A stretch of DNA of 42,768 nucleotides from Myxococcota bacterium (GCA_039814655.1 JBCCAW010000002.1:1-42768), one strand, 5' to 3'; numbered from the stretch's first letter, positions 6,513 through 40,204 are shown. Made by a program: numbers and translations. Notes: generated from the letters alone by a model not told the origin.

Positions 6513-6518
6513 GGGGTC

Positions 6519-12593: not shown

Positions 12594-12601
12594 ATCCCGG
12601 T

Positions 12602-12607: not shown

Positions 12608-12734
12608 GGGCAACCGAAGCGCTCGGCGCGGCGAGCATCGTTGCGTTTTCCGTTACAGGCCGTGCGCGCGGGAGCTTTCCCGGGAAGATCCGGCTCATAA
12701 CGGCGTCCGCGCGGCGCCGCTCTTGTGAGTACCC

Positions 12735-15136: not shown

Positions 15137-15341
15137 AGCGTCGCCGCGCGGTGGCGCCGCTGCCTTCGCGCCTGCCTGGAAATTTTTTCTCAGCTCCGCA
15201 CCGAGTTCCGCCGCAAGAGGCGCCCCGCCGCTCCAGGGCCGGGGCCCCCGCCGGCGTGAAGGAACCGAAATCATGAATGAAACACGCCACCGCGGCGGTC
15301 CTTGGCGGGGGGAACGGGCCTTGCACGGAGGTCACCTGCCC

Positions 15342-16109: not shown

Positions 16110-16759
16110 GGCGCCGGCTTCGGAGCGCATCCGCACGGCGCGGCGGGTTCACCATCATCGAGGTAATGATGGCCATCACGGTGCTCGCCATCGGCGCCGT
16201 CGGTCTCATGGGCCTCGTGCAGGCCACGGTGCGCGGCAACCAGCAGGGGCGACGCATCACGACGGCCACGCAGGTCGCGCGCACCTGGCTCGAGCGCGTG
16301 CGTACGGACACCATCGGCTGGACCACCAACACGCCCGGGGGCACGGCGACGACCTGCTACCTGCAGAACGCGCCGGCCGTGGCCGTGGGTGCCTCGTCGG
16401 GCTGGTTCGTGCCCCAGCCCGGTGGCGCCAACTGCGTCGACGTGGGCGGGCTCCCGGCGGCCTCCGAGGTGGGCATCGCCGCCGGCGCGGCCTGGACCGG
16501 CGCGGACGCGGTGAACTCCTCCGGCATCGGCAACCAGGCCCGCTACTGCACGCTGCTTCGCGTCACCTGGGTCGTCGCCGGCGAGATGCTTCGCGCCGAC
16601 GTGCGCACCTGGTGGGACGACAGCAGCGAGGCGCAGCTCGCGCCGAACTGCGGCCTCGGCAACGAGGCGGACATCGTGGCCGAGCTCGACGGCCCCATCG
16701 AAGACACGACGCTGCGCTCCGTGGAGACCTCCACGCTCGTGCGCTGGAGGCAGCAATGA
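16106..16759 (+). CDS. pilV: Minor pilin, PilV-like
   Basis: MRRRLRSASARRGGFTIIEVMMAITVLAIGAVGL prepilin motif. The ATG overlaps the upstream stop (ATGA). Confidence 0.7.
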   Translation: MRRRLRSASARRGGFTIIEVMMAITVLAIGAVGLMGLVQATVRGNQQGRRITTATQVARTWLERVRTDTIGWTTNTPGGTATTCYLQNAPAVAVGASSGWFVPQPGGANCVDVGGLPAASEVGIAAGAAWTGADAVNSSGIGNQARYCTLLRVTWVVAGEMLRADVRTWWDDSSEAQLAPNCGLGNEADIVAELDGPIEDTTLRSVETSTLVRWRQQ

Positions 16760-17970: not shown

Positions 17971-17987
17971 TCCCCGGCTTTTTCGTC

Positions 17988-18668
17988 ATGCGTACTTCCC
18001 CGACCCATCGCTCCATTCGCTCTCGTCGCCAGCAGCGCGTTGCCCGCCAACAGGGCGCCGCCATGCTCGTCGTGATGCTCGTGCTCCTCATGGGCACGGC
18101 CACGGGAATCTACGCGGCGCACCAGACCACCTTCGAGATTCGCGCGGCCGGGCATCTCCGCCAGGCCATGCAGACCGAATACGTGGGGCTCACCGGGGCG
18201 GCGGCGGCGCTGGGGTGGACGGACCAGTTCCGGGCGAGCGGACTCAACCAAGCCATGGAGCGGACGACGCAGCTGCAGGGGGGCGCGCCGGCGCTCGACC
18301 TCGCGCCCTTCGAGCCGCCCATGCTGCCGGGCAAGCGGGCCTACCGGCTCTACGCCGGTGACTTCGCGCTGGCCTTCCAGGGCACCATCACGGACCCGGA
18401 CGCATCGGCGGCGGCGCTCGGCGCGCACACGCCCTACGTGCCCACGCACACCGTGGACGTCTACGACGACTACCGGACCACGCGGCCCGTGCCCGGCGCA
18501 CCGGCCGACGGCCGGGCAGAGCTCGTCTACCTGAACGCCACCTACACGGCGCGCGGGCGCTCCGGCGTGCCGGGGCTCGCGGCCAACGTCGGCCCCGACG
18601 GCCGGCCCTTCTTCGAGGTGTCGAGCGATTCCCGCGCCTACGGGCGCTCCGGACCCATGGGCCTCTGA
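17988..18668 (+). CDS. pilX: PilX-like minor pilin / pilus assembly protein
   Basis: RQQGAAMLVVMLVLLMGTATGIYA is a PilX_N-type hydrophobic N-terminus lacking the G-F-T-x-x-E motif. It sits between the pilW-like and pilY1-like genes. Confidence 0.6.
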   Translation: MRTSPTHRSIRSRRQQRVARQQGAAMLVVMLVLLMGTATGIYAAHQTTFEIRAAGHLRQAMQTEYVGLTGAAAALGWTDQFRASGLNQAMERTTQLQGGAPALDLAPFEPPMLPGKRAYRLYAGDFALAFQGTITDPDASAAALGAHTPYVPTHTVDVYDDYRTTRPVPGAPADGRAELVYLNATYTARGRSGVPGLAANVGPDGRPFFEVSSDSRAYGRSGPMGL

Positions 18669-18679
18669 GGCGGATTGTC

Positions 18680-21600
18680 ATGAACGGACTCACCCAACAC
18701 ACGACCCGCCTGCTCGCAGCCCTCGGCCTCGCGCTCGCTTCGGCCAGCGTGGCGCCGACGCCGGCGGCGGCGCAGAACGACATCCGGGACATCCCGCCGC
18801 TGGTCACGCTCCTCGTCGACACGTCGAGCTCCATGCAGCGCCTCGGCGCCTGCGAGTGCGACACGTCGACGGATCCGGCGTGCCGGGGCTGCCTCCCGGA
18901 GTGCACCACGGGCACGCCGGAGCGGAACCGCTGGTGGACCGTCGTCGAGGCGCTGACGGGCACCTTCGCCGACTTCAGCTGCTCCGTCGAAGACCGGGAC
19001 GCGCCTTCCTACGCTGGCGAGCCCGACTACACGGACCCGATCCCGCACGTGCGCGCCGGCGGCATCGCGTGCCTGTCGAACTCGGACTGCCCCGGCGCGC
19101 TCACCTGCCTGAGCGACGGCGCAACGCAGGGTCTCTGCCAGGAAGAGGACGGCATTCTGGACATCTACCGCGAGCGCGTTCGCTTCGGGTTCATGACCTT
19201 CGACACCGGGGACACCTTCCTCAGCGGTCCGGGCATCAACATCGAGAACGAGCTCGTGACGCGCGCCCTTTACCAGTCGCGCATCGGCGAAGAGTCCACG
19301 GCCATGGGCACCTACTCCTACGGCGAGGCTCGGCCCTTCAGCTTCCCGGGCTGCGGTGAGCCCTACATGATCAACAACGGCGTCCGGACCTACCGGGCCG
19401 ACGGCGGCTCGCTCATCTCGAGCGGTCGCGAGGGCGTCGACGACCTCGTGACCATCAACCAGCTCATCCAGGAGTCGCTCCTGGACCCCTCGCTGCGCCC
19501 CACGGGGGCGACGCCAGTCGCGGGCATGCTCGAGGACCTCGACTTCTACTTCGACAACGACCCGGACGTGAGCCCCATTCGCGCCGGGACGCTCGGCTCC
19601 GGTGACCCCTTCAACGCCTGCCGCGCGCGCTACGCCATCCTGCTCACGGACGGAGCGCCGAACGCGGACATGCGCGACTCCACGGTCAACTGCGAAGCCA
19701 TGGGCAACGGCGTGGGCGAGCTCGGCTGCCCCTACGACACGCCGGTGAACACGGCGGCGCGCCTCGTCACCGAGGGCGACATCCAGGCGCTCTATGTCGT
19801 GGGCTTCAACGTGACGGCGGACAACTGCCCTTCCGGCGTGGCCGGGGACCGCTGCCGGCAGAACGCCGCGGACGCCATCGCCGAGCTCGATGCCATCGCC
19901 GACGCGGGCAACACGGGCTCGGCGATCTTCGCGGACGACCGGGCGACGCTGATCGCGGCGCTGGCAACCATCATCGACGAGTCGGCCCCGGGCACGACCT
20001 CGCGCACGCAGCCCGCCTTCGCGAACACTGGCTCCTCGACGGGCGCGGTGAACAGGCAGATTCAGCTCAACACGGGCTTCAACGTGTCCCGGGAGGCCGG
20101 CGAGCCCTGGACCGGCGTGCTCGAGCGGCGCCGCTTCGAGTGCGACGGGCTCACCGTGGAAGAGCAGCCCGTGCTTCCCACGGACCGCTTCCAGAACGTG
20201 TTGAACGCACAGACCGGCGCGCCGGGATCGGGCTCCGAACCGCGCCGCCTGCTGACCGTCGTGGCGCCCACGCTGCCGCCCTTCCTCGACTTCTACGGCG
20301 ACGGGCAGGCCGATCTCCAGGCGCGCTCCCCGACGCCGCCGCTCCCGCCGACGGGGCTGCCGACCAACGCGCTTCAGGTCGGGCTCGATCTGCAGGCCTT
20401 CGGGCTGAGCAACCCGGCGCTGACGCCGGAGGTGCTGGGCCTGGACGACCCGCTGCTCTCCGGGGCCGAGCAGCTGCTGGCGCTGCAGAACACCTTCGAG
20501 TGGATGCAGGGCCTCGCGGGGACCGCGCGTGACGGGCGACGGCTCGGCTCCATCGTGCATTCGTCGCCGGTGGTCGTCGGGCCCCCGAGCCTCGACATCG
20601 CCGACGAGGACTACAACCTCTTCCGCGAGCGCGTGGGCGAGCGGCCCACGGTGACCTATGTGGGCACCAACGACGGGCTAATGCACGCCTTCCTCACGGA
20701 GGACTACGAGGTGCCGGCCACGGACCCGGACTTCGCGGGCCTGAACATCACCGCGGGAACGGAGCTCTGGGGCTTCGTGCCGCCGGTGCTGCTGCGTCAG
20801 CTCCCGGACGTGCAGGACGCGCCGCGGGCCATGGTGGACGCCACGCCGGTCGTCCGCGACGTCTTCGACGCGCGGCTCCTCGGGCAGATCGCCTCCGGCG
20901 ACGCCTACCGCACGGTCATGGTCTCGGGCCTCCGGGCCGGCGCCCCGGCCTTCTTCGCCCTCGACGTCACGGACCCCTTCCGGCCCGAGTTCCTCTGGCA
21001 GTACACGGACCCGGGCATGCTCGGGGAGACCTACGGGGAGCCCACGCTGGCGCAGGTGCGCGTCGAGTTCGGGAGCGTGACCCACGAGCGCGGCATCGCG
21101 ATTCTCCCGGGCGGAAAGGGCACCCAGGACCTGACGCTCGGCGGCGTCGACCTGGACGGCGACGGCACGCCGGAGACCTCCCCGGCGTGCTCCGTTCCGG
21201 CGAACGCCGTGGGCCTCACGCCGGAGCGCGGGGAGGCCGGGCGCACCGACCGCCGCTGCTGGATGCCCGACGAGGGCCGGGCGCTGGTCATCCTGGACCT
21301 GGCCACCGGCGCCGTCCTCCGCTCCTGGGATGCCGCGACCTTCCCGGCGCCCCTCGCCGGCGGCGTCTCCGCCTTCCCCGGCGACACGGGCAACATCGCC
21401 ACGCGCGCCTTCGTGACCGACGAGGACGGCGTCATCTGGCGCATCGACCTGTCCGAACCGGACCCGGACGACTGGGAGGTCTCGGCCTTCTACGACATGT
21501 TCCATGGCCTGGGCTACGCGGCGGGTCAGCCGGCCTTCGGCCCGCCGGTGCTCAGCACCGACGAGGACGGCAACGTGGTCATCCTTCACGGCACCGGTGA

Positions 21601-22240
21601 CATCGACCGCCTCGAGAACCCGGGCGTTCGGAACCGCATCGTGTCCTTGACGGAGCAGATCACCTTCGACGACGCGACGGGGGCGGTGACGGATGTGGGC
21701 GCGCGCCTCAACTGGGAGATCACCCTGGACGAGGGCGAGCTCGTGACCGGGCCCCTGGAGCTCTTCAACGGGGAGGTCTTCTTCGGCACCTTCACGAGCA
21801 CCACGGACATCACCAACGCCTGCGAGTTCGGCTTCAGCCGCATCTGGGGCGTGCAGTATATCGAGAGCGAGCCGGCCGTGAGCACGGACCCGGCGCCGGC
21901 CCTCGAGTCCACGCCGGGGTCGGGCATCCAGGACGTGACGAACCTCGGCCCCGGCGACTCGCCGGGCCTCGACAACCGGCTCGTGCTCGGTGTGTCGGTC
22001 ACCGAGCGGCCCAACTGCGCGCTCCGCGACGAGGTCAGCGAAACGGACCCCTACATCGGCACACGACAGACCGTGCGTATGCGGCAGGTCGCGCCGCCGA
22101 CCTTCGAGCTCGTGGCTCAGCTCTCCGGCGGTCCCGGCGGGGGCGGTGCCGGCGGGGGCTCGGTGCAGGAGTTCAACCGTGAGCTGCCGCCGCCGGTCGG
22201 GTACACGACGCAACGCGCGCTCCTCGGCATCGTCGACTGA
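18680..22240 (+). CDS. pilY1: PilY1-like type IV pilus tip adhesin with N-terminal vWA domain
   Basis: 1186 aa. Signal peptide ..ASASVAPTPAAAQ. MIDAS DxSxS motif (LLVDTSSSM, D-T-S-S-S at 18818-18832). C-terminal beta-propeller-like region with a Ca-binding-like loop DLDGDGTPE (21149-21175). Position after the pilVWX-like genes supports the call. Confidence 0.8.
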   Translation: MNGLTQHTTRLLAALGLALASASVAPTPAAAQNDIRDIPPLVTLLVDTSSSMQRLGACECDTSTDPACRGCLPECTTGTPERNRWWTVVEALTGTFADFSCSVEDRDAPSYAGEPDYTDPIPHVRAGGIACLSNSDCPGALTCLSDGATQGLCQEEDGILDIYRERVRFGFMTFDTGDTFLSGPGINIENELVTRALYQSRIGEESTAMGTYSYGEARPFSFPGCGEPYMINNGVRTYRADGGSLISSGREGVDDLVTINQLIQESLLDPSLRPTGATPVAGMLEDLDFYFDNDPDVSPIRAGTLGSGDPFNACRARYAILLTDGAPNADMRDSTVNCEAMGNGVGELGCPYDTPVNTAARLVTEGDIQALYVVGFNVTADNCPSGVAGDRCRQNAADAIAELDAIADAGNTGSAIFADDRATLIAALATIIDESAPGTTSRTQPAFANTGSSTGAVNRQIQLNTGFNVSREAGEPWTGVLERRRFECDGLTVEEQPVLPTDRFQNVLNAQTGAPGSGSEPRRLLTVVAPTLPPFLDFYGDGQADLQARSPTPPLPPTGLPTNALQVGLDLQAFGLSNPALTPEVLGLDDPLLSGAEQLLALQNTFEWMQGLAGTARDGRRLGSIVHSSPVVVGPPSLDIADEDYNLFRERVGERPTVTYVGTNDGLMHAFLTEDYEVPATDPDFAGLNITAGTELWGFVPPVLLRQLPDVQDAPRAMVDATPVVRDVFDARLLGQIASGDAYRTVMVSGLRAGAPAFFALDVTDPFRPEFLWQYTDPGMLGETYGEPTLAQVRVEFGSVTHERGIAILPGGKGTQDLTLGGVDLDGDGTPETSPACSVPANAVGLTPERGEAGRTDRRCWMPDEGRALVILDLATGAVLRSWDAATFPAPLAGGVSAFPGDTGNIATRAFVTDEDGVIWRIDLSEPDPDDWEVSAFYDMFHGLGYAAGQPAFGPPVLSTDEDGNVVILHGTGDIDRLENPGVRNRIVSLTEQITFDDATGAVTDVGARLNWEITLDEGELVTGPLELFNGEVFFGTFTSTTDITNACEFGFSRIWGVQYIESEPAVSTDPAPALESTPGSGIQDVTNLGPGDSPGLDNRLVLGVSVTERPNCALRDEVSETDPYIGTRQTVRMRQVAPPTFELVAQLSGGPGGGGAGGGSVQEFNRELPPPVGYTTQRALLGIVD

Positions 22241-26514: not shown

Positions 26515-27543
26515 TTAGCTCGAGCGGACGGCCAAGCGGTCGGCCACGGCCTTCAGCAGGGTCACACCCTCCGCCGAAAAGGGCGCGCCCTCGAGGGCGC
26601 CGTGGGCCGCGGCGAGGAGCGTCTTCAGCCGCGCCTCGACGTTGGCCTTGGCGCCGCTCGAGACGAGGAGCGCCGAGGCGGCTTCGAGGGCCGGCTCGGA
26701 GCGATCCTGTCCGCCGATGACCTGGTCGAGGGCGTCGCGCTGGCCCGCCGGGAGCAGGCGCTCGGCCTCGGCGACGAGACAGGTGCGCTTGCCGTTGCGG
26801 AGGTCGTTGCCGGGCTTTCCCGTGGCGCCCTGGTCGCCGAAGGTGCCGAGCAGATCGTCGGCGAGCTGAAAGGCCTCGCCGAGGGGGTTTCCGTAGGCGA
26901 GGAACGCCGCCATGGCCTCGGCGCTCGCGTCGCCGAGCAGACCGCCGAGGCGCAGGGGCCCGCGCACCGTGTAGGAGCCGGTCTTCAGGTCGTGCATGCG
27001 CGAGACGTCGGGGTTGGCCGTGAGATCGAGGTGATGGCCGAGGATGACTTCCTTCTGGATGCGGAGGAACGCCTCCATGGCCTCGCCGCGCCGGGCGGCG
27101 GGGAAGGGCGCCTCGACGAAGAGCTCGAAGGCGTAGGCGCTGCCGATGTCGCCGGCGAGAATGGCGAGGCTGTCGGCGAGGTGGCCTTCGTGGCGGTCGC
27201 GGAAGGCCGCGTGCACCGCGGGGCCGCCGCGGCGCTCGTCGTCCTGGTCCATCCAGTCGTCGTGGATCAGTAGGTAGCTCTGGAGCAGCTCGAGGGCTGC
27301 GCCGGCGCTCACGGTGTCGCTCAGCGGGCGCTCCGGGGCGACGCACGCCGTGGCCGCCGCGAGCACGACGGGGCGGAAGCGCTTGCCGCCGCGAAGCGTG
27401 AGGTCGCGAATTCCCTCGACGAGCTCGACGCTCTCCGGGGAGATGGCCGTGGCTTCGGCCACCTTGAGCTCGAAGTAGGCGGCAAGCTTCGCGTCCACGA
27501 GGTCGCGAACGCGGGGGAGAAAGTCGGCGAGGGTCTCGGACAT
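26515..27543 (-). CDS. Polyprenyl diphosphate synthase (GGPP/FPP synthase family)
   Basis: First Asp-rich motif LLIHDDWMDQDDERRG, second Asp-rich motif FQLADDLLG, and GKRFRP near the N-terminus. Confidence 0.85.
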   Translation of the reverse strand: MSETLADFLPRVRDLVDAKLAAYFELKVAEATAISPESVELVEGIRDLTLRGGKRFRPVVLAAATACVAPERPLSDTVSAGAALELLQSYLLIHDDWMDQDDERRGGPAVHAAFRDRHEGHLADSLAILAGDIGSAYAFELFVEAPFPAARRGEAMEAFLRIQKEVILGHHLDLTANPDVSRMHDLKTGSYTVRGPLRLGGLLGDASAEAMAAFLAYGNPLGEAFQLADDLLGTFGDQGATGKPGNDLRNGKRTCLVAEAERLLPAGQRDALDQVIGGQDRSEPALEAASALLVSSGAKANVEARLKTLLAAAHGALEGAPFSAEGVTLLKAVADRLAVRSS

Positions 27544-27791
27544 GGGGCGCTCCGGGGCGGCGCGAGGGCAGGCCTGGGGCCGGGCAGGCGAGCTGCGGCG
27601 CGCGAGGCGCGGGCGTAGCCTTCGACGTGCCCGTGGGCAAGGGCGCTTCGGCCCCTGCGGCTCGCGACCGCGGGAGCGCAGCTCGGCCCGCGCTCGTCAC
27701 GGTCCGGCGGGGCGCCGCTTGCGTCACACCGCCGGCTGGTGGACGTCATCGTGCGGCCCCACGGTCCCCTCCCATGAGCCGCGGAGACACC

Positions 27792-28862
27792 ATGAGCAGC
27801 GAAGCGTCCAACGTCCTCGACATCGGCCAGCGCAAGGCCGACCACCTCGACCTCTGCGCCACCGACGCCGTGGCCTTCAAGAAGGTGACGACGCTCCTCG
27901 AGGAGGTGCGGCTGGTGCATCAGTCGCTTCCGGACCTCGACGTCGATAGCGTGGACCTGTCGACGACGCTGCTCGGCAAGACGCTCCGGGCGCCCATCGT
28001 CATCGCGGCCATGACCGGCGGCCACGAGCGGGCGGCGGAGGTGAACCACACGCTTGCCTCCATCGCGAACGACCGGGGCTACGGCTTCGGCCTCGGGTCC
28101 CAGCGAGCCATGCAGAAGCGTCCCGACACGGCCTGGACCTTCCAGGTGCGGGAGAAGGCGCCGGACGTGCTGCTGATGGGCAACGTGGGCGTGGTGCAGG
28201 CGCGGGACATGGACGTGGAGATCATCGCGACGATGATCGAGCAGGTCGGGGCCGACGCGCTCTGCGTGCACCTGAACCCGGCCATGGAGCTCGTGCAGCC
28301 CGGCGGCGACCGGGACTTCACGCGGGGCACGGAGACCATCGCGCGCCTCGTGAAGGCGCTGCCCGTGCCCGTGGTGGGCAAGGAGACGGGCAACGGCATC
28401 AGCGTGGAGACGGCGCGGAAGCTCCGCGACGCGGGCGTCAGCACCGTGGACACGAGCGGCGCCGGCGGCACGAGCTGGGTGGGTGTGGAGACGCTCCGGG
28501 CCGAGGGCGATCAGAAGACGCTGGGCGAGATGCTCTGGGATTGGGGCGTGCCGACGGCGGCGAGCGTGCACAACGTGGTGCGCTGCGGCATGCACGCCAT
28601 CGCGACCGGCGGCATGAAGAACGGCTACGACGTGGCTCGGGCCATCGCGCTCGGCGCGAGCGCCGGGGGATTCGCGCGGCAGGTGTTCCAGGCCTTCGTG
28701 AGTGGCGGCCGCGACGGCGCCGAGGCCTTCTTGAACCGGGTGGAGAACGAACTCCGGGCGGTGATGCTCCTGAGCGGAGCGCAGACCGTGGACGAGCTCC
28801 GCCGCGCCCCGCGCATGATCGGCCCCCAGCTCCGCGAATGGATGACCCTCACCGACCGCTGA
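27792..28862 (+). CDS. fni: Type 2 isopentenyl-diphosphate delta-isomerase (FMN-dependent)
   Basis: QRKADHLDLC, AAMTGG, VGKETGNGIS and DTSGAGGTSW match IDI-2 signatures. ATG 27792 has GGAG 5 nt upstream; an alternative ATG is at 27774. Confidence 0.85.
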   Translation: MSSEASNVLDIGQRKADHLDLCATDAVAFKKVTTLLEEVRLVHQSLPDLDVDSVDLSTTLLGKTLRAPIVIAAMTGGHERAAEVNHTLASIANDRGYGFGLGSQRAMQKRPDTAWTFQVREKAPDVLLMGNVGVVQARDMDVEIIATMIEQVGADALCVHLNPAMELVQPGGDRDFTRGTETIARLVKALPVPVVGKETGNGISVETARKLRDAGVSTVDTSGAGGTSWVGVETLRAEGDQKTLGEMLWDWGVPTAASVHNVVRCGMHAIATGGMKNGYDVARAIALGASAGGFARQVFQAFVSGGRDGAEAFLNRVENELRAVMLLSGAQTVDELRRAPRMIGPQLREWMTLTDR

Positions 28863-28869
28863 GCGCTGA

Positions 28870-28960
28870 GGGGACGGACCCGACCAACCGAACAAACGCC
28901 CCCAAAACCCGTGTGGTTTCAAGCCCGCATCGGGGACGGACCCGACTAACCGAACCAAGG
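28870..28960 (+). repeat. Left arm of a roughly 91-nt inverted repeat flanking sctS, with two direct copies of a 27-nt core
   Basis: Core GGGGACGGACCCGACYAACCGAAC occurs at 28870 and 28932. The whole arm matches the reverse complement of 29279-29370 along most of its length, apart from a divergent central segment. Confidence 0.85.
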
Positions 28961-28989
28961 CCCCGGGCCCCGGCACCCGCGGGCCCTGG

Positions 28990-28995
28990 TACGCT
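28990..28995 (+). promoter_or_regulatory. -10-like hexamer TACGCT, 6 nt upstream of the sctS ATG (candidate leaderless promoter)
   Basis: Reads GGTACGCT-TCCCCC-ATG. This fits TAnnnT with no SD. It lies between the left repeat arm and sctS. Confidence 0.3.
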
Positions 28996-29001
28996 TCCCC
29001 C

Positions 29002-29271
29002 ATGAACGGGGCGGAGCTCGGGAGGCTGGCGGCGGAAGCCCTGTACCTGGTGCTGCTCGTCTCGGCCCCGGCTCTGCTCGTGAGCCTCGCCGTCGGCCTG
29101 AGCGTCGGACTTCTCCAGGCCGTGACCCAGGTGCAGGAGCAGACGCTGAGCTTCGTGCCGAAGCTCGCAGGCGTCGCCATCGCGCTCGTCGTGGGCGGCG
29201 GCTGGATGGGCGCGCAGCTGATTCGCTTCACGTCGCGGCTCTGGGAGAGCCTGCCGCTGCTCTTCCCATGA
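29002..29271 (+). CDS. sctS: Type III secretion export-gate protein SctS (FliQ/YscS family)
   Basis: 89 aa. LLVSAPALLVSLAVGLSVGLLQAVTQVQEQTLSFVPKLAGVAIAL is an almost textbook FliQ/YscS core (QA.TQ.QEQTL.FVPK). Confidence 0.9.
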   Translation: MNGAELGRLAAEALYLVLLVSAPALLVSLAVGLSVGLLQAVTQVQEQTLSFVPKLAGVAIALVVGGGWMGAQLIRFTSRLWESLPLLFP

Positions 29272-29278
29272 TCGCGCG

Positions 29279-29370
29279 CTTGGTTCGCTTAGTCGGGTCC
29301 GTCCCCGCTGCGGGGCCCGAGATGATTGGGGTTTCGGGGGCGGTTGGTTCGGTTAGTCGGGTCCGTCCCC
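29279..29370 (-). repeat. Right arm of the inverted repeat flanking sctS (two copies of the core in reverse orientation)
   Basis: GTCGGGTCCGTCCCC occurs at 29291-29305 and 29356-29370. The arm lies wholly within the 117-nt sctS-sctT spacer. Confidence 0.85.
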
Positions 29371-29388
29371 TTGCTTGAGGCGGTGTTG

Positions 29389-30174
29389 ATGGTGCTGGGG
29401 CTCGAGGATGGGCGGGTCCTTTCCCTCGGGGCGCTCACGGCGGCACGCGTGGCGCCGCTCACCGTCGTCGCGCCCTGGCTCATGGTGCGCGACGCGCCGG
29501 CCCTGGTGCGGAGCGGCGTCATTTTGGCGCTCACCGTCGCCTTCGCGCCCTTGGCCTTCGCCTCGGCGCCGGCGACGCTCCAGGTGCCCTTCGTCGTCGC
29601 GCTGGTTCGCGAAGGCCTCATCGGCACCTGCTTTGCCTTCGCGACGGCGCTGCCCTTCTACGCCTTCGATTTCGCCGGCCGCCTCGTCGACACCTGGCGC
29701 GGCGCCGGCCTCGCCGAGGTCATCGCGCCCCCGACGGGCGAACGCACGAGCCCCCTCGGCGACCTCCAGCTCCTCGCCGCCGTCGCGCTCTTCGCCACGC
29801 TCGGAGGCCACCGCCTCGCGCTCCTGGCCTTCGCCGAAGGCCTGACCATCGCGCCCGTCGGCGCCACGCCCCTCGCCGGAGGGACCGCGAGCGTGGCCCT
29901 CGGCGCCGCCGCGCTCTCGGGAGCCGCGCTGGCGTTCGCCGCCGCCGTTGCCGCGCCCGCCGCCGCCGCCATCGTGCTCGTGGAAGCGAGCCTCGGCCTC
30001 GTCGCCCGGGCCACTCCGCAGATTCCCGTCTTCTTCGCCGGCATGCCGCTCCGCGCCGCCGCGGGTCTCCTGGGCGCGCTACTCGCCGCCGCCGCCCTCG
30101 GCGACACGCTCGCGCCAGCCCTCGCCGAAGGGCTGCGCACGGCGACCGATTGGTTGCGGGCCTTTGCTCGCTGA
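29389..30174 (+). CDS. sctT: Type III secretion export-gate protein SctT (FliR/YscT family)
   Basis: 261 aa from ATG 29389 (the track ORF starts at 29326 inside the repeat). Polytopic membrane protein. LVREGLIGTCFAF..FDFAGRLVD and LVEASLGLVARATPQIPVFFAGMPLRAAAGLL match FliR/YscT blocks (..R..PQ.n.F..g.P.k). Position after sctS supports the call. Confidence 0.8.
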   Translation: MVLGLEDGRVLSLGALTAARVAPLTVVAPWLMVRDAPALVRSGVILALTVAFAPLAFASAPATLQVPFVVALVREGLIGTCFAFATALPFYAFDFAGRLVDTWRGAGLAEVIAPPTGERTSPLGDLQLLAAVALFATLGGHRLALLAFAEGLTIAPVGATPLAGGTASVALGAAALSGAALAFAAAVAAPAAAAIVLVEASLGLVARATPQIPVFFAGMPLRAAAGLLGALLAAAALGDTLAPALAEGLRTATDWLRAFAR

Positions 30175-31968: not shown

Positions 31969-33873
31969 ATGGTCTCCGGGTTCCCCGCCCGCTTTCTTTC
32001 CTTCGTCGCCCTCGCCGCGCTCGCCCTCCCGGGCCGGGCATCGGCCCAGGACCGCGTGCTCGAGGTGGAGTTCACGCCGACGGAGCGCGCGCAGCTCGCC
32101 GTCTGGCTCGAAGCGGAAGACGGCAGCTTCGTCCGCACGCTCTTGCTCACGAACGCCGTGGGCAAGTACGGCATCGGCAACCGGCCCGGAGCGCTCCAGA
32201 TGAACAGCGGCTACCGCTGGCCCTACGGCCGCCGGGAAGGCGCGCTGCCGGTCTGGGGCCATCGCCGCGCCGACGCGCAGGGGCCTTTCGCCCGCGTCAT
32301 CTTCCAGGACCGCCGCTCCGAGGGCTACGCGAGCCGCACCTCGTCGGACTTCTCGCCGGACGCCTACTTTTGCCTGAGCTTCGACCGGGCGCTGAGTGAC
32401 CGGGACGCCCTCGACGCCGTCACCTGCGCCAGCCAGTTCAACAGCGACAAGGGCCGCTACATCACCGACGACGACGTCGACGCCGGCTACACGGAGCCGT
32501 GGATCGACGAGGCCGGCGCCGCCGGAGACCGGGCGCTCACGCTGACGAGCGTGTACCCGCCGCGGCGCGACCTCGGGGACCCGGTGCTCTCGGACCATCC
32601 GGACGTGGCCCGCTTCGCTGGCGACGCACGGGACGTGATGCCCGAGATCGACGCGGTCACCACGGCCACGCTCCCCGGCGACACGCGGCGCCGGCTCACC
32701 TTCGCGGTGCCCGACGACATCCCCGACGGCGCCTACCTGGTCTGGCTCGAGGTGAACACGGAGGGCGACTACAGCGACGCCTGGGGCCCGGAGCGCTTCC
32801 CGGGACCCACGGACCCGACGGGGACCCGCTGGGACACCTGGGCCGTGAACTTCGGCTACCCCTACCGCGGTCAGCCCTCGGTGGTCTACGCGGTGCCCAT
32901 CACGCTCAGCGGCGCCGAAGACGAGGCCGGCACGGCGACGCCCGTGGGCTATGGCGACCTCGAGGGCGAGACCGGCACGCTCCGCGCCATGGACGCCACC
33001 ATCGCGGCGGACCCGGACAGGGCCCCCGGGAGCGGTACGGACCGGCTCCGCATCGACGGGCAGAGCGGCCACCGGCTCGTGGTGCGGGTCGTGGGCACCA
33101 ACGTCTGCGAGGCGCCCAACCCGCCGCCGGAGTGCGGCGCGGCCTGCACCGCCGTGGACGGCTGCGGCGAGGGCTTCCTCTGCGACGTGGGCGCCGGCAC
33201 CTGCGTGGGCCGCTGTGAGCTCGACGCGACGCCGGACGCCATCGCGGATCTTGGGGCCCGGGCAGACGCGGACCGCAGCTGGGACCGCGCGCAAGTGGAG
33301 CTCACGCTCCCGAGCTCGCTCCGCGGTCTCGGCGAGGTCGAGATTCGCGTCTCCCCCGATCCCTTCGACGGAAGCGTGCCCTTCGAATCCTGGGGCGTGA
33401 CCGCCAAGACCTACAGCGAAGACAACGAGGAGGAGACCTTCCAGCTCCTGCTCCAGGCCGAGCAGCTCGCGGCCCTCGGCGCCGGGCCTGGCGACCGCAT
33501 CGCCGTCGACCTCGCCGGCCTCGCCTTCGCCAGCACGCACTACGTGGGCGTACGCGCCAAGGACGAGTGCGGCCGCGCCGGCCCCGTCGCCACGGCCCAG
33601 CTCCAGACCACGGAGATCGTCTTCGAGACCGTGTCGCCCTGCTTCGTGGCGACGGCCAGCTACGGCACGCCCCAGGCCGAAGAGATCGGCGTGCTCCGGC
33701 GCTTCCGGGACCGCTACCTGCGCAGCACATCCCTCGGCGAAGAGCTCACGCAGGCCTACTACGCGCACGGGCCCGTGCTCGCTGCCGAAGTGCGCGAAAG
33801 CGAGACGCTCCGGCGCGTGAGCCGCTCGGTGCTGGAGCCCGTGCTGGCCTTCGCGGAGTGGCTCGAGCGATGA
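31969..33873 (+). CDS. Large secreted multidomain protein: DUF2271-like N-terminus, Cys-rich central module, C-terminal CFVATASYG..LRRFRDRYL module
   Basis: Signal peptide MVSGFPARFLSFVALAALALPGRASAQ. LEVEFTPTERAQLAVWLEAEDGSFVRTLLL resembles DUF2271 (low certainty). Cys cluster CEAPNPPPECGAACTAVDGCGEGFLCDVGAGTCVGRC. The stop overlaps the next start (ATGA). Confidence 0.6.
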   Translation: MVSGFPARFLSFVALAALALPGRASAQDRVLEVEFTPTERAQLAVWLEAEDGSFVRTLLLTNAVGKYGIGNRPGALQMNSGYRWPYGRREGALPVWGHRRADAQGPFARVIFQDRRSEGYASRTSSDFSPDAYFCLSFDRALSDRDALDAVTCASQFNSDKGRYITDDDVDAGYTEPWIDEAGAAGDRALTLTSVYPPRRDLGDPVLSDHPDVARFAGDARDVMPEIDAVTTATLPGDTRRRLTFAVPDDIPDGAYLVWLEVNTEGDYSDAWGPERFPGPTDPTGTRWDTWAVNFGYPYRGQPSVVYAVPITLSGAEDEAGTATPVGYGDLEGETGTLRAMDATIAADPDRAPGSGTDRLRIDGQSGHRLVVRVVGTNVCEAPNPPPECGAACTAVDGCGEGFLCDVGAGTCVGRCELDATPDAIADLGARADADRSWDRAQVELTLPSSLRGLGEVEIRVSPDPFDGSVPFESWGVTAKTYSEDNEEETFQLLLQAEQLAALGAGPGDRIAVDLAGLAFASTHYVGVRAKDECGRAGPVATAQLQTTEIVFETVSPCFVATASYGTPQAEEIGVLRRFRDRYLRSTSLGEELTQAYYAHGPVLAAEVRESETLRRVSRSVLEPVLAFAEWLER

Positions 33874-34079
33874 CGCGGCTCCTCCTCGCGCTCGGCCTCG
33901 CGGCCTCGCTGGCCGGCTGCGCCACCGTCGCGCCCTACGAGCGCGAAGACCTCGCCAAGCCTGGGATGGACCTCGAACGCGAAGGCGTCGAGACCGGCTT
34001 CCGCGCCCACGTGCACGACGCCCGCGAGGGCGCCACGGGCGGCCACGGCTCCTCCGGCGGCGGCTGCGGCTGCAATTGA
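33870..34079 (+). CDS. DUF4266-like small lipoprotein ending in GGGCGCN
   Basis: 69 aa. MTRLLLALGLAASLAGCATVAPYEREDLAKPGMD... ends with the terminal motif SSGGGCGCN, which I recognise as the DUF4266 family signature. ATGA overlap upstream and TTGA overlap downstream. Confidence 0.75.
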   Translation: MTRLLLALGLAASLAGCATVAPYEREDLAKPGMDLEREGVETGFRAHVHDAREGATGGHGSSGGGCGCN

Positions 34080-35254
34080 GCGCGCACGTGCGTCGTCGCC
34101 TTTCGCTCCTCGCCGCGCTCGCCGCGCTCGCCGCGGCTCCCGGCGCCGCCGACGAGGCCAGCGGCGATTGGACCGGCGCCCTCGAGCTGCGCGGCAACTA
34201 CTACTGGGAGACGTCGACGCGCGTGGTCGCGCCTTCCCTCGACGTAGGCCTCGAGGCGCCCAACGGGACGCGCTTTGGCGTCGAGTACCTCGTCGACGCG
34301 ATCACGAGCGCGAGCCAGGCCGCCGGCGCGCTCACGGACAACCGCTTCACGGAGATTCGCCATCAGGGCAGCGGCCGCGTGAGCCACGAGCTCGAGCTCC
34401 GGAGCGGCCAGTTCCTGACCCTCGGCGGCGGCTTCTACGCGAGCCGGGAGCCGGACTACCGGAGCGGCGGCGTGAGCCTCCTGGGCGCGCTCTCGACCGC
34501 GGACCGGCAAACGACCCTCGGCTTCAACGCTTCGTTCCTTCATGACGAGGTGCGCCAGCTCTTCCGCACCGGTTCGCGCGTGTCCCCGAACCCCATGGGC
34601 GGCACGGACGCCAACCGCTTCGCGGAGAACTTCGACGCCATGACGCTGGCGGGCACCGTGGAGCACATCCTGACGCCGCAGCTCTACGTGCAGGCCGGCT
34701 ACCAGTACGCCTACCTCAACGGGTTCCTCGCGAACCCGTACCGGCGCGTGCCCCTGGGCGACGTGACGGCGCGCGAGGGCACCGTCACCGAGGTGCATCC
34801 CGGCGTGCGCCGCCGGCACACGCTGCACGCGCGCCTCGCCTATTACATTCGCGCCACGGGCACGTCCCTGCACCTGGCCATGCGCGGCTACGCCGACAGC
34901 TGGGACGTTCGCGCCGTCACTCCGGAAGTGCGCCTCTACCAGGAGCTCGGCGAGGACGCGCTCGTGCGCCTTCGTTACCGCCACTACAACCAGTCGGCGG
35001 CGTTCTTCTACCAGGACGTCTACGTGCCGACGGACGTCGACGACGGCGACGTGGCCACCTTCGACCCGAAGATGAGCAACTTCCACAGCCACCTGGCGGG
35101 CTTTCAGCTCCGGCTGCGCGGCGGCTTCTTGGCCGGCACGGTGCTCGACGGGCTTCGCGACGCGACCCTCGACTTCAACCTCTCGTACATCTGGAACACG
35201 AACCGCTTCGGCAACGGCGTCATCGGCAGCGCCGGCCTCACGGTTCCGTTCTGA
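34076..35254 (+). CDS. DUF3570-like outer-membrane beta-barrel protein
   Basis: Signal peptide RRRLSLLAALAALAAAPGAADE (TTG 34076 or GTG 34088). Repeated Y/G-rich amphipathic strands. C-terminal ...SAGLTVPF has the terminal Phe typical of OMPs. Its position directly after a DUF4266-like gene matches the known co-occurrence. Confidence 0.7.
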   Translation: MSAHVRRRLSLLAALAALAAAPGAADEASGDWTGALELRGNYYWETSTRVVAPSLDVGLEAPNGTRFGVEYLVDAITSASQAAGALTDNRFTEIRHQGSGRVSHELELRSGQFLTLGGGFYASREPDYRSGGVSLLGALSTADRQTTLGFNASFLHDEVRQLFRTGSRVSPNPMGGTDANRFAENFDAMTLAGTVEHILTPQLYVQAGYQYAYLNGFLANPYRRVPLGDVTAREGTVTEVHPGVRRRHTLHARLAYYIRATGTSLHLAMRGYADSWDVRAVTPEVRLYQELGEDALVRLRYRHYNQSAAFFYQDVYVPTDVDDGDVATFDPKMSNFHSHLAGFQLRLRGGFLAGTVLDGLRDATLDFNLSYIWNTNRFGNGVIGSAGLTVPF

Positions 35255-35677
35255 GGCTCTCCGCGCCGTCCGGCAGCGCACCGCCGGGACCCGGCTTCGT
35301 GACGCCATATGACCCTACGTTGGGCGTCATGCGGAGCCTTGCGCGCATCATGCCGGCTGCGGTACTTCGCTCGGAGCCCGTTTCCTGGTCCTGGGGAAGA
35401 CTCCTGTGGGCGCGGAGGGGGCTTTTCCTGGGGAGTTTCGATCCCCAGACTGCCCCGTGGTTCTTCCCGTCCCGAGATCGCCACAAGCCTGAACGATCTC
35501 ATCCGCTTGGCTTCCAAACCCCCCAATCCACAGCCCTTAAGACGAAGACGAGAGAGACCTTAACCCTCTAATTCTCTCCCCTTCCGACTCGCTCTCCGCA
35601 CCGGGCGCTCGCGGGGGCCACCGCGCCTTCGCTTCCCTTCACGCTTCGCTCACGACTCCCCCTGCATCGAGGTACCG

Positions 35678-37074: not shown

Positions 37075-37164
37075 GGTGCCACGGGGGGCCGTCCAGCGGC
37101 CTTCCGGTCAGGCTCACGGTGCCTCCCGTCGCCCGCGCACGCGCGTGTGCTAGGACCCGGCGCC

Positions 37165-38106
37165 ATGAGCGGTTTCGTCGGGCGGGGCCGAGGCAAGGTC
37201 ATCCTCCTCGGCGAGCACAGCGTGGTCTACGGCCGGCCGGCGCTGGCCGCGGGCCTCGAGCGTGGGGTGCAAGCGAGGGTCCGCGCTGCCGACGCCGACG
37301 CCATGCAGCTTTCGCCGTGGGAGGTGCGCGTCACGCCGGCGCAAGGAGACGAGCCCCTCGGCCAGGCGCTCGCGGCGGCGCTCGCCCTCTACGCCGAGCG
37401 CAGCACCGGGGCCGCCGTGCAGGTCCAGGTGGGGCTCCCCGGTGGCGCCGGCCTCGGCTGCTCTGCGGCCATCGGCGTGGCGGTGATCGAAGCGCTCGAC
37501 GGCCTCTACGGCGTGCCACGAACGCCGGCGGAGCGGGGTGACGCCTCCCTCGCCTGGGAGAAGGTCTTCCACGGCTCGCCCTCCGGCGTGGACAACGCCG
37601 TTGCCGCCGTGGGCGGCGTGGTGCGCTTCGTGCGCGGCCAAGGCGTGAGGCCCGTGGCCTTCGGCCGGCCCTTGCCCCTCGTGGTGGCCCACAGCGGCAT
37701 CGCCTCGAGCACCAAGGTCGTCGTCGATGGCGTACGCGAGCGCTGGACCGCGAACCGGCCGGCCATGGAGCGGATCTTCGACGCCATCGCCGGCCTCGTC
37801 GACCGGGCGGAGACGGCGCTCGCGGCCGGCGAGCTCGACGTGCTGGGCGGGCTCATGAACGACAACCAGCGCGAGCTCGAAGCCATGGGCGTGAGCACGC
37901 CGGCGCTCGAGGCGCTGGTGGCCGAGGCCCGGGCCGCCGGCGCCCTTGGGGCGAAGCTGACCGGGGCCGGCGGCGGCGGCTGCATGGTGGCGCTCGCTCC
38001 CGACTCAGCCACCGCCGCGCGCATCGAGGCGCGGCTGGCCGCGCGGGCGTCGATGACCTTCACCACCACCGTTGGCGGCGACGCCGACGCGGGAGACGAC
38101 ACGTGA
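37165..38106 (+). CDS. mvk: Mevalonate kinase
   Basis: GKVILLGEHSVVYGRPALA, GHMP motif GLPGGAGLGCSAAIGVA, and KLTGAGGGGCMVAL. ATG 37165. Confidence 0.85.
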   Translation: MSGFVGRGRGKVILLGEHSVVYGRPALAAGLERGVQARVRAADADAMQLSPWEVRVTPAQGDEPLGQALAAALALYAERSTGAAVQVQVGLPGGAGLGCSAAIGVAVIEALDGLYGVPRTPAERGDASLAWEKVFHGSPSGVDNAVAAVGGVVRFVRGQGVRPVAFGRPLPLVVAHSGIASSTKVVVDGVRERWTANRPAMERIFDAIAGLVDRAETALAAGELDVLGGLMNDNQRELEAMGVSTPALEALVAEARAAGALGAKLTGAGGGGCMVALAPDSATAARIEARLAARASMTFTTTVGGDADAGDDT

Positions 38107-39107
38107 CGCACCTCGACGGCAAGGCCCGCGCTACGGCGCGCGCCAACATCGCGCTGGCCAAGTACTGGGGCAAAGCCGACGTCGCCCTGAACCTCCCGGC
38201 GGTGCCGAGCATCTCCCTCACCCTCGACGGCCTGGTGACGCGCACGAGCGTGCGCTTCGACCGGCGCCTCGACGCGGACGAGGTGGAGCTCGACGGGCGC
38301 CCGGCGACGGCGAAGGAGAGCGCGCGCGTGGTCGAGCTACTCGACCGGGTGCGCGCGGCGGCGAAGGCGGAGACGCGGGCGAAGGTCGTCAGCAACAACC
38401 GCTTCCCGACGGCGGCGGGGCTCGCTTCGAGCGCCAGTGGCTTCGCGGCGCTGGCGGCGGCGGCGAGCCACGCGGCGGGCCTCGGCTGGGGCCTCCGCAA
38501 GGTGAGCAGCGAGGCCCGGCGCTCGAGCGCCAGCGCGGCCCGGAGCGTCTATGGCGGCTTCGCCGAGCTGCCCGCGGGCAAGCAGCGCAAGGATGGCCGC
38601 TGGGACGGCTTCCTGCCGGCCAAGGCGCTGCACGGCCCGGAGCATTGGGACCTGCGCCTCGTGGTCGCGGAGACCGCCCGCGGGCCGAAGAAGGTCGGCT
38701 CGACCGAGGGCATGGAGCGCTCGCGAACGACCTCGCCCTATTACGACGCCTGGGTGAGGGAGGCGCCGGCGTGGGCCGACCAGCTCCGGAAGGCGCTGAA
38801 GCGTCGGGACCTCCCGGGCGTCGGTGAGGCCATGGAGCGGAGCACGCTCGCCTTCCACACCTGCGCCATCACCGCGTATCCCTCGATCCTCTACTGGCAG
38901 GCGCCGACGGTGGCGGTGCTCCACGCGGTGCGGGAGCTGCGCGAGGCCCGGGGCCTCGCCTGCTGGGCCACCATGGACGCGGGCCCGCACGTGAAGGTGC
39001 TCTGCGCCGCCGCGGACGCGCGGAAGATCCGCGCGGCGCTGAAGCGGGTCGAGGGCGTGACGGGAACGCTCGTGTGCAAGCCCGGCGCGGGCATCGAGGT
39101 CGCGTGA
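38103..39107 (+). CDS. mvaD: Diphosphomevalonate decarboxylase
   Basis: ARANIALAKYWGKADVALNLPAVPSISLTL and NNRFPTAAGLASSASGFAALA. GTG 38103 overlaps the mvk stop (GTGA). Confidence 0.85.
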   Translation: MTHLDGKARATARANIALAKYWGKADVALNLPAVPSISLTLDGLVTRTSVRFDRRLDADEVELDGRPATAKESARVVELLDRVRAAAKAETRAKVVSNNRFPTAAGLASSASGFAALAAAASHAAGLGWGLRKVSSEARRSSASAARSVYGGFAELPAGKQRKDGRWDGFLPAKALHGPEHWDLRLVVAETARGPKKVGSTEGMERSRTTSPYYDAWVREAPAWADQLRKALKRRDLPGVGEAMERSTLAFHTCAITAYPSILYWQAPTVAVLHAVRELREARGLACWATMDAGPHVKVLCAAADARKIRAALKRVEGVTGTLVCKPGAGIEVA

Positions 39108-40204
39108 GCGGCGACGTCTCGCGCGGTTCCGTCTCGCGCGGCTCCGTTTCGCGAGGTGCCGTCTCGGCGCCGGGAAAGATGATGGTCGGCGGCGAGTACG
39201 CGGTGCTGGCTGGCGCGCCAGCGGTGGTCGCTGCGGTGCAGGCCCGAGCCCGGGTGCACTTCGTGACCGCCGCCGTGGCCGAGGCGCGTGAGACCGCCGC
39301 GGCCGCCCGCCACGAGGCCGGAGACGGCTGGGACGGGACCGCCATCGCGTCGCCGGAGCGCTTCCCCGAGGCCTTCGCCGCACGGCGACTCGCCGAGCAA
39401 GCGCTCGGCCCCGTGCCCGGGCGCCTCGCCGTCGACGTGTCCGCGCTCCGCCGGGCAGGGCAGAAGCTCGGCGTCGGCTCGAGCGCGGCGGCGGCGGCGG
39501 CGGCCTCGGCGGCCGTGCACGCGTGGCACGGCGCCGACGTAGCGGCCCCGGAGGTGCGGGCGCGCGCCCTCCGCTTCGCCCTCGAGGGGCACCGGGAAGT
39601 GGCCCCGCGCGGTTCCGGCGCCGACGTGGCGGCGGCAGCGCTCGGCGGCTTCGTGCGCTTTCGGCGCCCCGGCGGCGTGGAGGATCCCGCCTACGAGGCC
39701 GCGGCCCTTCCCGCGCCCGAGGGGCTCTCGCTACGCGTGGTCTGGACCGGCGAGGCGGCCAGCACGCGGGAGCTCATCGCGAAGGTCGAAGCGCTCCGCG
39801 TGAAGGACCCGGCGCTCCACGGCCGGTGCATGGACCGGCTCGCGGACGAGGCGGCGGCCTTCGTGAGCGCCTTCGAGACCGGCGTCGCGCGTCCCGTCGT
39901 GGACGCGGCGGCGCGCTACCACGCCGCGATGAAGGCGCTGGGCGAGGCGGCGGACGCGCCCATCGTCGAAGCGCGCCTCGACCGGGCGGCGACGCTCGCC
40001 GCGGCCCACGGAGGCGCCGCAAAACCGAGCGGAGCCGGCGGCGGCGACGTGGCCTTGGCCTTCTTCGAGTCGGGCGCCGAAGCCGACGCCTTCACGGCCG
40101 CGGCGGCTAGCGCGGGTCTTACGCCGCTGGCCCTCCGCCTCGGCGGCCCCGGCCCGCTCCCCGGGGACGAGCCCTCGAAAGACGAGGCTGCCGAGGACGT
40201 CTAG
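39104..40204 (+). CDS. mvaK2: Phosphomevalonate kinase (GHMP/ERG8-type)
   Basis: SAPGKMMVGGEYAVLAGAPAVV, GQKLGVGSSAAAAAA, and KPSGAGGGDVALAF. GTG 39104 overlaps the mvaD stop (GTGA). Confidence 0.75.
   Translation: MSGDVSRGSVSRGSVSRGAVSAPGKMMVGGEYAVLAGAPAVVAAVQARARVHFVTAAVAEARETAAAARHEAGDGWDGTAIASPERFPEAFAARRLAEQALGPVPGRLAVDVSALRRAGQKLGVGSSAAAAAAASAAVHAWHGADVAAPEVRARALRFALEGHREVAPRGSGADVAAAALGGFVRFRRPGGVEDPAYEAAALPAPEGLSLRVVWTGEAASTRELIAKVEALRVKDPALHGRCMDRLADEAAAFVSAFETGVARPVVDAAARYHAAMKALGEAADAPIVEARLDRAATLAAAHGGAAKPSGAGGGDVALAFFESGAEADAFTAAAASAGLTPLALRLGGPGPLPGDEPSKDEAAEDV
39116..39166 (+). repeat. 3.4 x 15-bp in-frame tandem repeat (gtctcgcgcggytcc) encoding VSRGS-VSRGS-VSRGA at the PMK N-terminus
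   Basis: Units at 39116-39130, 39131-39145 and 39146-39160, plus a partial unit. It lies upstream of the first conserved PMK motif. Confidence 0.85.

Follow-up and report, generated by a model that had tools for sequence, protein, structure and literature searches.

A translationally coupled operon of Polyangia links a split DUF2271 protein to a DUF4266 lipoprotein and a DUF3570 barrel: a possible ApbE-unlinked redox module of the outer membrane

Extracytoplasmic covalent flavinylation is a recently recognised route for electrons through the bacterial envelope, and its DUF3570/DUF4266 branch is still without a known physiological role. We asked what is encoded by a compact operon of this branch at positions 31969–35254 of a 42,768-nucleotide (nt) stretch of DNA from a Myxococcota bacterium (GCA_039814655.1, JBCCAW010000002.1:1-42768; hereafter the window), in which a large secreted protein precedes a DUF4266 lipoprotein and a DUF3570 barrel. 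Our best explanation, which we hold with about even confidence, is that the operon encodes a Polyangia-specific, ApbE-unlinked variant of the DUF4266-DUF3570 flavin/thiol envelope redox module, acting at the outer membrane. This explanation builds on family memberships, predicted folds, motif conservation and gene linkage, as set out below.

Three co-directional open reading frames (ORFs), all on the plus strand, occupy the interval: ORF1 (31969–33873; 634 amino acids (aa)), ORF2 (33870–34079; 69 aa), and ORF3, which starts at 34076 or 34088 and ends at 35254. A preliminary description of this DNA had reported the three genes and an ATGA overlap between the first two, and both were confirmed by ORF listing and by reading the junction: at 33870–33873, the ORF1 stop TGA (33871–33873) shares bases with the ORF2 ATG at 33870. 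The second overlap it proposed, a TTGA at 34076, held in part. A TTG at 34076 does overlap the ORF2 stop TGA (34077–34079) and would give an ORF3 of 392 aa, but the public gene call of the identical protein (P0121) is 388 aa, matching a GTG at 34088 that lies 8 nt past the ORF2 stop. Whichever ORF3 start is true, this junction measures ≤8 nt and the genes are tightly packed. Public calls also match the lengths of ORF1 (P0001, 634 aa) and ORF2 (P0241, 69 aa). No terminator-like site or hairpin was found between the three genes, although promoter and terminator scanning is uninformative in DNA of this composition (window G+C content ~72%), and Rfam and transfer RNA scans of the window were both empty. 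Homologues of the window's genes came solely from Myxococcota metagenome-assembled genomes (MAGs) of Sandaracinaceae/Polyangiales type.

Profile searches placed ORF2 and ORF3 in the two families that had been recognised by eye. The DUF4266 profile (PF14086) matches ORF2 over profile positions 1–50 of 50 (73.1 bits, E = 3.5e-20, cut-off 27), and the DUF3570 profile (PF12094) matches ORF3 (114 bits, E = 9.5e-33, cut-off 25). ORF2 carries a lipobox (LAG/C, with Cys17 as the lipid-box cysteine) and ends in GGGCGCN, that is, Cys66-Gly-Cys68, within a pattern conserved in 47 ORF2 homologues (V.PYERE...REGATGG...GGGCGCN). ORF3 reads as a protein with a signal peptide and a C-terminal TVPF. AlphaFold2, given 40 homologues, modelled it as 16 long antiparallel strands (predicted local distance difference test (pLDDT) 85; predicted template modelling score 0.81), and Foldseek matched this model to OprD/Occ, OmpG, FadL and general porins (E = 1e-9 to 1e-10), bearing out the barrel proposed earlier and making ORF3 a predicted 16-strand outer-membrane β-barrel. 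Sequence and profile searches of ORF3 against the PDB gave only chance-level matches, and tblastn against plasmids gave none.

DUF2271 and DUF3570 proteins have been identified as substrates of the ApbE flavin transferase by co-expression and site-directed mutagenesis (Méheust et al., 2021, eLife, PMC8238504), and the earlier statement that these families lack an experimentally defined role is therefore outdated. The same work pointed out the C-terminal CXC of DUF4266 as a possible redox-cycling pair, and its surveys found genomes with several ApbE substrates (PMC8238504). The flavinylation motif is D-x-x-[S/T]-G-A-[S/T]. No flavinylation remains once its last residue is lost, and changing G to A or A to V leaves ~50%, the glycine being non-essential (PMC12052999). 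The tested DUF3570 protein, from Chlorobium luteolum, has two [S/T]GA[S/T] flavinylation motifs.

We found a candidate flavinylation site of this type in ORF3, D74-A-I-T-S-A-S80 (392-aa numbering; 34295–34315, plus strand), and DAITSAS is invariant in 40 members of the ORF3 subfamily. An exhaustive HMMER search collected 1462 DUF3570 representatives at E <= 1e-3; in an alignment of 109 full-length representatives, the site nearly always reads D-x-[IVW]-[ST]-[SGA]-A-[ST], with DAVSGAT or DAVTGAT in distant members. A second motif lies a few residues downstream in some of these distant proteins (e.g. DIRTSAS at locus L088), and the corresponding stretch is QAAGALT in the window's subfamily. In the AlphaFold2 model, the retained site falls at the end of strand 3, adjoining the loop formed by residues 77–84. 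It would sit in extracellular loop 2, at the outer rim of the barrel, because in the usual porin topology, applied here to the secondary structure, the termini are periplasmic and the long loops lie outside.

ORF1 is a member of the 'CFI-box-CTERM domain-containing protein' family of Polyangia, with more than 1126 full-length homologues at 45–87% identity, all from Myxococcota, and more than 1100 clusters at 90% identity. Its domains follow in the order signal peptide, N-terminal half of DUF2271, insertion, C-terminal half of DUF2271, seven-cysteine module, FN3-like sandwich and four-helix CFI-box domain. The DUF2271-like N-terminus, Cys-rich module and conserved C-terminal module that had been read from the sequence were all recovered, by hhalign, by seven conserved cysteines and by a CFI-box-CTERM match, respectively. 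The protein begins with a predicted Sec-type signal peptide (31969–32046, plus strand; MVSGFPARFLSFVALAALALPGRASA), likely cut after ASA (...LPGRASA/QD), and the N-terminal 330 residues are extremely conserved in alignments of 120 and of 30 sequences.

The DUF2271 assignment depended on how the insertion was treated. The Pfam profile (PF10029) scores below threshold on ORF1 (25.5 vs 27.3 bits), placing residues 38–64 on profile positions 16–42, and precomputed DUF2271 matches on ORF1 homologues are likewise 'faint'. When ORF1 was compared by hhalign with the canonical 282-aa DUF2271 protein of L088 (itself 40 bits in Pfam), the motif-bearing half aligned at 54% probability with the insertion present; with residues 69–204 removed, the probability was 96.3% (E = 1.5e-9) and both halves were colinear. 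By these profile comparisons, the ORF1 N-terminus is a DUF2271 domain split by a 136-residue insertion. Its putative N-terminal half comprises residues 27–68 (32047–32172), with the first strands of a β-sandwich that is completed after the insertion, and is supported by the partial Pfam match and the colinear hhalign match; the family-specific insertion, delimited by alignment conservation, comprises residues 69–204 (32173–32580); and the putative C-terminal half, from the alignment with L088, comprises residues 205–330 (32581–32958, all plus strand).

The C-terminal half contains a candidate ApbE site, D228-A-V-T-T-A-T234 (32650–32670, plus strand); canonical DUF2271 proteins read DAVTSAT or DAVSSAT at the aligned position. 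Across the family (consensus DAVTMAT), D228 and A233 do not vary, and conservation of T231 and T234 reaches 90% or more. The position of the canonical glycine is occupied by M in most members and otherwise by T (as here), R, A, S, L or V. The insertion itself is the most conserved stretch of the family (GIGNRPGA.QMNSG.RWPYGRREG.LPVW.HRR, YFCLSF, LDAVTCAS.FNSDKGRY, SLYPPRRD) and had no relative in Pfam, among PDB sequences or by fold (Foldseek). Within it, AlphaFold2 pLDDT falls below 50 at residues 70–88 and 120–160. Such conservation combined with poor modelling would fit a cofactor, substrate or partner site, although this is a guess. Among potential metal ligands of ORF1, M78 and M224 are invariant, and H98, H210 and M232 are conserved at ≥90%.

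Downstream of the DUF2271 domain, ORF1 has a seven-cysteine module (residues 380–416; 33106–33216) with Cys positions conserved at ≥90%, an FN3/Ig-like β-sandwich (residues about 420–546; 33226–33606) predicted by AlphaFold2 from strands of high pLDDT, and a CFI-box-CTERM domain (NCBIfam NF041770, 73.6 bits vs cut-off 40; residues 558–625 of 634; 33640–33843; all plus strand). The CFI box consists of an invariant Cys-Phe followed by a predicted helical bundle (helices 559–633, pLDDT 81–93). FN3 domains were the only significant matches when the whole ORF1 model was searched against the PDB with Foldseek; these matches are generic and probably reflect residues 420–546. ORF1 found no counterpart in the PDB by sequence or profile search, no literature on the CFI box was found by name or by its CFIATAAYG motif, and the CFI box, the insertion and the Cys/FN3 modules did not occur in other proteins of the neighbourhoods examined. 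A haem cofactor was considered and rejected, since CxxCH is absent from all three proteins.

The preliminary description had noted that ApbE and thioredoxin are missing from the window, which the Pfam scan bears out, and had suggested that ORF1 takes their place. We rejected that suggestion: ORF1 has no similarity to either protein, and its N-terminus is itself a candidate ApbE substrate domain. With ORF1 as a candidate substrate, the operon would therefore need ApbE more, not less.

We compared the trio with the two kinds of flavinylation cluster to which its parts belong. Some clusters combine ApbE, DUF3570, a thioredoxin-like protein and DUF4266, with or without DsbD (PMC8238504). The window shares with the DsbD-associated ones an adjacent DUF4266 (CXC) and DUF3570, a homologous motif position and the extracytoplasmic destination of all products. 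It differs in having no ApbE, thioredoxin-like or DsbD gene in the window, none of these being linked within ±10 kb of 83 relatives either; in keeping one of the two DUF3570 sites, as TSAS rather than [S/T]GA[S/T]; and in adding a translationally coupled, DUF2271-like multidomain protein. Other clusters combine ApbE, DUF2271, DUF4198 and a PepSY-like membrane protein (PMC8238504). Here the likeness lies in the DUF2271-type fold predicted for ORF1 and in a motif placed where the proven flavinylation site lies. In contrast to those proteins, the DUF2271 domain of ORF1 is split by the insertion, fused to Cys-rich, FN3-like and CFI-box domains, below the Pfam threshold and altered at the motif glycine (T here, M in most relatives), and its partners are DUF4266 and DUF3570, with no PepSY, DUF4198 or ApbE nearby.

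Next, we examined how consistently the three genes travel together, scanning 143 loci (one genome per species; the best 80 are all Polyangia MAGs) over ±10 kb around each locus. Where the sequence extends far enough downstream of an ORF1-family gene, DUF4266 and DUF3570 follow directly in 43 cases, DUF4266 alone in 5 and neither in 31. The linkage anticipated for the first gene is thus conserved, but it is not obligatory. In the 43 complete loci, gene order is kept across Sandaracinaceae and Polyangiales despite changed flanks: uvrB lies upstream in 28 linked loci, and a divergently transcribed methyltransferase lies upstream in the window and its closest relatives. Junctions are tight in most loci, and a 4-nt ORF1/ORF2 overlap is possible in at least 17 of 41; these counts are lower bounds, because start-codon heuristics are noisy and fail for Polyangiales-type lipoboxes. 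In a distance tree, most unlinked ORF1 copies group in a single paralogue clade, and the backbone is made up of the linked copies, that of the window among them. DUF4266-DUF3570 pairs are also widespread without any ORF1-like gene; in the cultured Sandaracinus amylolyticus, the gene ahead of the pair is not ORF1 but encodes an unrelated glycine-rich protein. DUF4266-DUF3570 therefore appears to be the core, with ORF1 a frequent, ancient but non-obligatory partner.

Individual loci showed further variation. A secreted YVTN-repeat β-propeller gene lies directly upstream of, and tightly coupled to, 14 of 34 unlinked ORF1 paralogues (L024, L040, L048, L049, L054, L062 and others; ~10001–11800), which suggests a second, different partnership of the ORF1 family. 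In L019 (12060–14600) and L034, opposite-strand genes of ~2–2.7 kb lie between DUF4266 and DUF3570, so that the trio operon was apparently split by insertion in one Sandaracinus lineage. The five loci with ORF1 and DUF4266 but no DUF3570 downstream of about 12080 are L001, L007, L009, L010 and L026, and these genomes must therefore either do without the barrel or encode it elsewhere; in L001, its place is taken by an unrelated ORF of 83 aa and a gene on the opposite strand. Metal-related genes neighbour DUF4266-DUF3570 pairs in three loci: an HMA P-type ATPase in L092 (4935–7196), a MopE copper protein in L091 (12276–15281), where a FadL-type barrel is also close to the pair, and CusF at the edge of L001 (1–111). 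Anecdotal as they are, these neighbours fit the iron/metal link proposed in the literature.

MAGs of other lineages carry another, apparently undescribed cluster type (L088, 4828–13159; L086, 587–8249; L090, 4906–9702). It comprises Redoxin, DUF3570, an unannotated protein of 453–456 aa, DUF4266 and a DsbD-thioredoxin fusion, the fusion and Redoxin being present in L088 and L090. In L086 and L088 there are, in addition, two small proteins with CxxCH motifs (one matching choice-of-anchor V), a canonical DUF2271 and an extracytoplasmic function (ECF) sigma factor. The 456-aa protein of L088 has an outer-membrane-protein-like C-terminal end. ApbE was not found within 8 kb in any of the three, and no DUF2271 gene was found within the stretch fetched for L090. 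The L086 and L088 clusters share with the window the combination of DUF2271, DUF4266 and DUF3570, the absence of ApbE nearby and [ST]SA[ST] motifs. Unlike ORF1, their DUF2271 is canonical, about 280 aa long and lacking both insertion and CFI box; L088 and L090 have DsbD-thioredoxin and Redoxin, L086 and L088 have haem-motif proteins, and gene order is unlike that of the window. The DUF3570 of L088 keeps both sites, whereas ORF3 keeps one.

In some Pseudomonadota, DUF4266/DUF3570/TlpA neighbourhoods hold a JDVT-CTERM protein, named for a Cys-bearing C-terminal sorting signal (Haft 2023 preprint, 10.1101/2023.06.07.544157). Like the window, these neighbourhoods combine DUF4266-DUF3570 with a larger exported protein whose C-terminal domain is conserved and contains Cys. 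They differ in phylum and in the presence of TlpA, which the window lacks. They also differ in the C-terminal domain: that of JDVT-CTERM proteins is a sorting signal that spans the membrane and is cleaved by a CPBP protease, and that of ORF1, the CFI box, is a 69-residue helical domain. Taking these neighbourhoods together with L086, L088 and the other clusters, an accessory exported protein beside DUF4266-DUF3570 is thus a recurring theme, and DUF2271 is seen in this role in at least two forms.

From these observations we infer flavinylation, a cellular location, electron flow, a substrate and a physical complex of the trio, in the following arrangement. An ApbE encoded elsewhere in the genome would attach flavin mononucleotide (FMN) in the periplasm. 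The ORF3 barrel would carry one ApbE-type flavin site (DAITSAS), at the outer rim, and the Cys-Gly-Cys in the Gly-rich tail of ORF2, probably anchored in the outer membrane, would cycle between dithiol and disulfide. ORF1, exported by Sec, would act through its N-terminal DUF2271 domain as a second flavin carrier, with DAVTTAT as its site; the insertion probably forms a substrate- or partner-binding pocket, and the Cys-rich, FN3-like and CFI-box domains presumably serve assembly or anchoring. Electrons would then move between the CXC thiols and the two covalent flavins, in either direction, to or from a partner, possibly a metal ion. The stoichiometric outer-membrane complex proposed in the preliminary description is plausible, because the trio joins a barrel and a lipoprotein with tight coupling.

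Several observations weigh against this redox module. ApbE (PF02424) was not found in a Pfam scan of all plausible genes of the window, which likewise returned no thioredoxin, DsbD or PepSY. ApbE was also not found within ±10 kb of 83 related loci by jackhmmer with an E. coli ApbE seed, a search that had no positive control among its loci, nor among the precomputed Pfam matches of 11 fetched loci. Searches of the neighbourhoods by phmmer with the L088 DsbD and Redoxin as seeds gave no DsbD and one weak Redoxin (thioredoxin-like) match, in an unlinked locus, and therefore no source of electrons can be seen. At both candidate sites a bulky residue stands in for the motif glycine (S in ORF3; T in ORF1 and M in most of its relatives). 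The second DUF3570 site is lost in the window's subfamily, the outer-rim placement of the remaining one follows from a topology rule and not from coordinates, and the conserved ORF1 insertion is modelled at low confidence only. Finally, the linkage is modular, with 31 ORF1 paralogues lacking both partners, five loci lacking DUF3570 and S. amylolyticus lacking ORF1 at this position. We give the redox module no better than an even chance because neither site keeps the motif glycine, an electron donor is not in sight and the case is built from sequences and models.

The trio may instead be a flavin-independent outer-membrane complex in which flavinylation has been lost and D-x-x-T-x-A-T/S is kept for structural reasons, serving transport or envelope homeostasis, for instance metal handling via CXC, His and Met ligands. 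The absence of ApbE and DsbD from the examined loci, the solitary thioredoxin-like match, the unretained motif glycine and the vanished second DUF3570 site all agree with such a loss, and the conserved Met and His residues of ORF1 and the metal-related neighbours in L092, L091 and L001 would suit a metal. Those neighbours are anecdotal, however, and the acceptor Ser/Thr and the aspartate are as strictly conserved as in ApbE-linked relatives. Moreover, ApbE often serves substrates encoded away from apbE. We regard the flavin-free complex as doubtful, although it is the rival that we take most seriously. We consider it decidedly improbable that the barrel and lipoprotein form an export or anchoring system, moving ORF1 across the outer membrane or holding it at the surface via the CFI box as a surface enzyme or adhesin. 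ORF1 does look like such a cargo, being large, with a Sec signal, FN3-like and Cys-rich modules typical of surface proteins and a C-terminal domain with an invariant Cys, and both the tight coupling of the genes and the JDVT-CTERM protein in DUF4266/DUF3570/TlpA neighbourhoods point the same way. Yet DUF4266-DUF3570 occurs widely without an ORF1-like gene, and the 31 ORF1 paralogues with no pair nearby belong to a family whose alignments show an intact CFI box. Neither a POTRA nor a plug domain is present in the ORF3 barrel, which is of the diffusion-porin kind in its likeness; the predicted CFI box is a soluble bundle of helices rather than a membrane anchor; and the author of the JDVT preprint read the neighbouring proteins as working partners, not as sorting machinery (10.1101/2023.06.07.544157).

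That ORF1 is an independent exoprotein lying upstream of DUF4266-DUF3570 by chance is hardly credible. In favour of this, the linkage is not universal, but the order is conserved in 43 loci of Sandaracinaceae and Polyangiales whose flanks have changed, starts and stops overlap or lie a few nt apart in many of them, no terminator-like site separates the genes, and DUF2271 co-clusters with DUF4266 and DUF3570 in independent lineages.

A more specific form of the redox module would make the trio a cytochrome-free outer-membrane electron conduit, a flavin/thiol counterpart of porin-cytochrome systems confined to Polyangia. The DUF3570 flavin at the outer rim would be fed from the periplasm by the DUF4266 Cys-Gly-Cys, and ORF1, with its own flavin and the insertion, would be the terminal reductase of a metal ion or other extracellular substrate. 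We offer this as a speculation and think it unlikely. The porin-cytochrome conduit MtrCAB of Shewanella, which has a 26-strand barrel, is comparable in mechanism only: both operons encode redox proteins alongside an outer-membrane barrel, which hints that electrons pass at or across the outer membrane. The trio differs from MtrCAB in lacking haem motifs, in having 16 rather than 26 predicted strands and in having covalent FMN and a dithiol as would-be cofactors, and there is no homology between the two.

The operon shows DUF2271 and DUF3570, both proven ApbE-substrate families, co-encoded with a CXC lipoprotein in a tightly coupled unit that is widespread in a whole myxobacterial class (Polyangia) and stands consistently apart from ApbE, DsbD and thioredoxin. 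The ORF1 family adds a near-invariant insertion in DUF2271 that resembles an active or binding site. Should the proteins prove flavinylated, the family would be a good way in to the question of which compounds the system oxidises or reduces; should they not, it would be a natural case of fold reuse without flavin. The operon is chiefly of value as a case, well defined, widespread and open to experiment, for working out the role of DUF3570/DUF4266.

Outside the operon, a 423-nt intergenic stretch of lower G+C (35255–35677) separates ORF3 from dnaN. At the position of this gap, an 87%-identical relative (L003) has an opposite-strand gene of 1018 aa; recF lies 12 kb away, and dnaA is outside the window. 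Isoprenoid/carotenoid genes surround the operon (3–2247, 26515–28862 and 37147–40204), including a lycopene cyclase and a Rieske/DUF5914 protein, a polyprenyl synthetase and an FMN_dh-type enzyme, with mevalonate-pathway GHMP kinases and a diphosphomevalonate decarboxylase just past dnaN.

The window also holds scattered genes of type III secretion/flagellar-type export (12735–14029, minus strand; 28870–30174, plus strand): a FliI/YscN-like ATPase beside dnaJ, and FliQ- and FliR-like proteins (Bac_export_3, Bac_export_1). No complete export apparatus was seen within the window; the arrangement is the same in L003, and a type III secretion ATPase is near dnaJ in S. amylolyticus (L085). At 15108–22240 (plus strand), genes with N-terminal methylation (pilin-like) motifs are followed by a 1292-aa PilY1 β-propeller, which looks like a minor-pilin/PilY1 set for type IV pili. 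A Xre-like antitoxin gene with an MbcA/ParS-type C-terminal toxin-binding domain lies at 6135–6521 (minus strand). Lastly, a gene at 8556–12734 (minus strand) encodes a 1392-aa fungalysin-type (M36) metalloprotease with PA and PKD domains, whose C-terminal tail is hydrophobic and then Arg-rich (...LFALVVFRRRRLR), resembling a C-terminal sorting signal.

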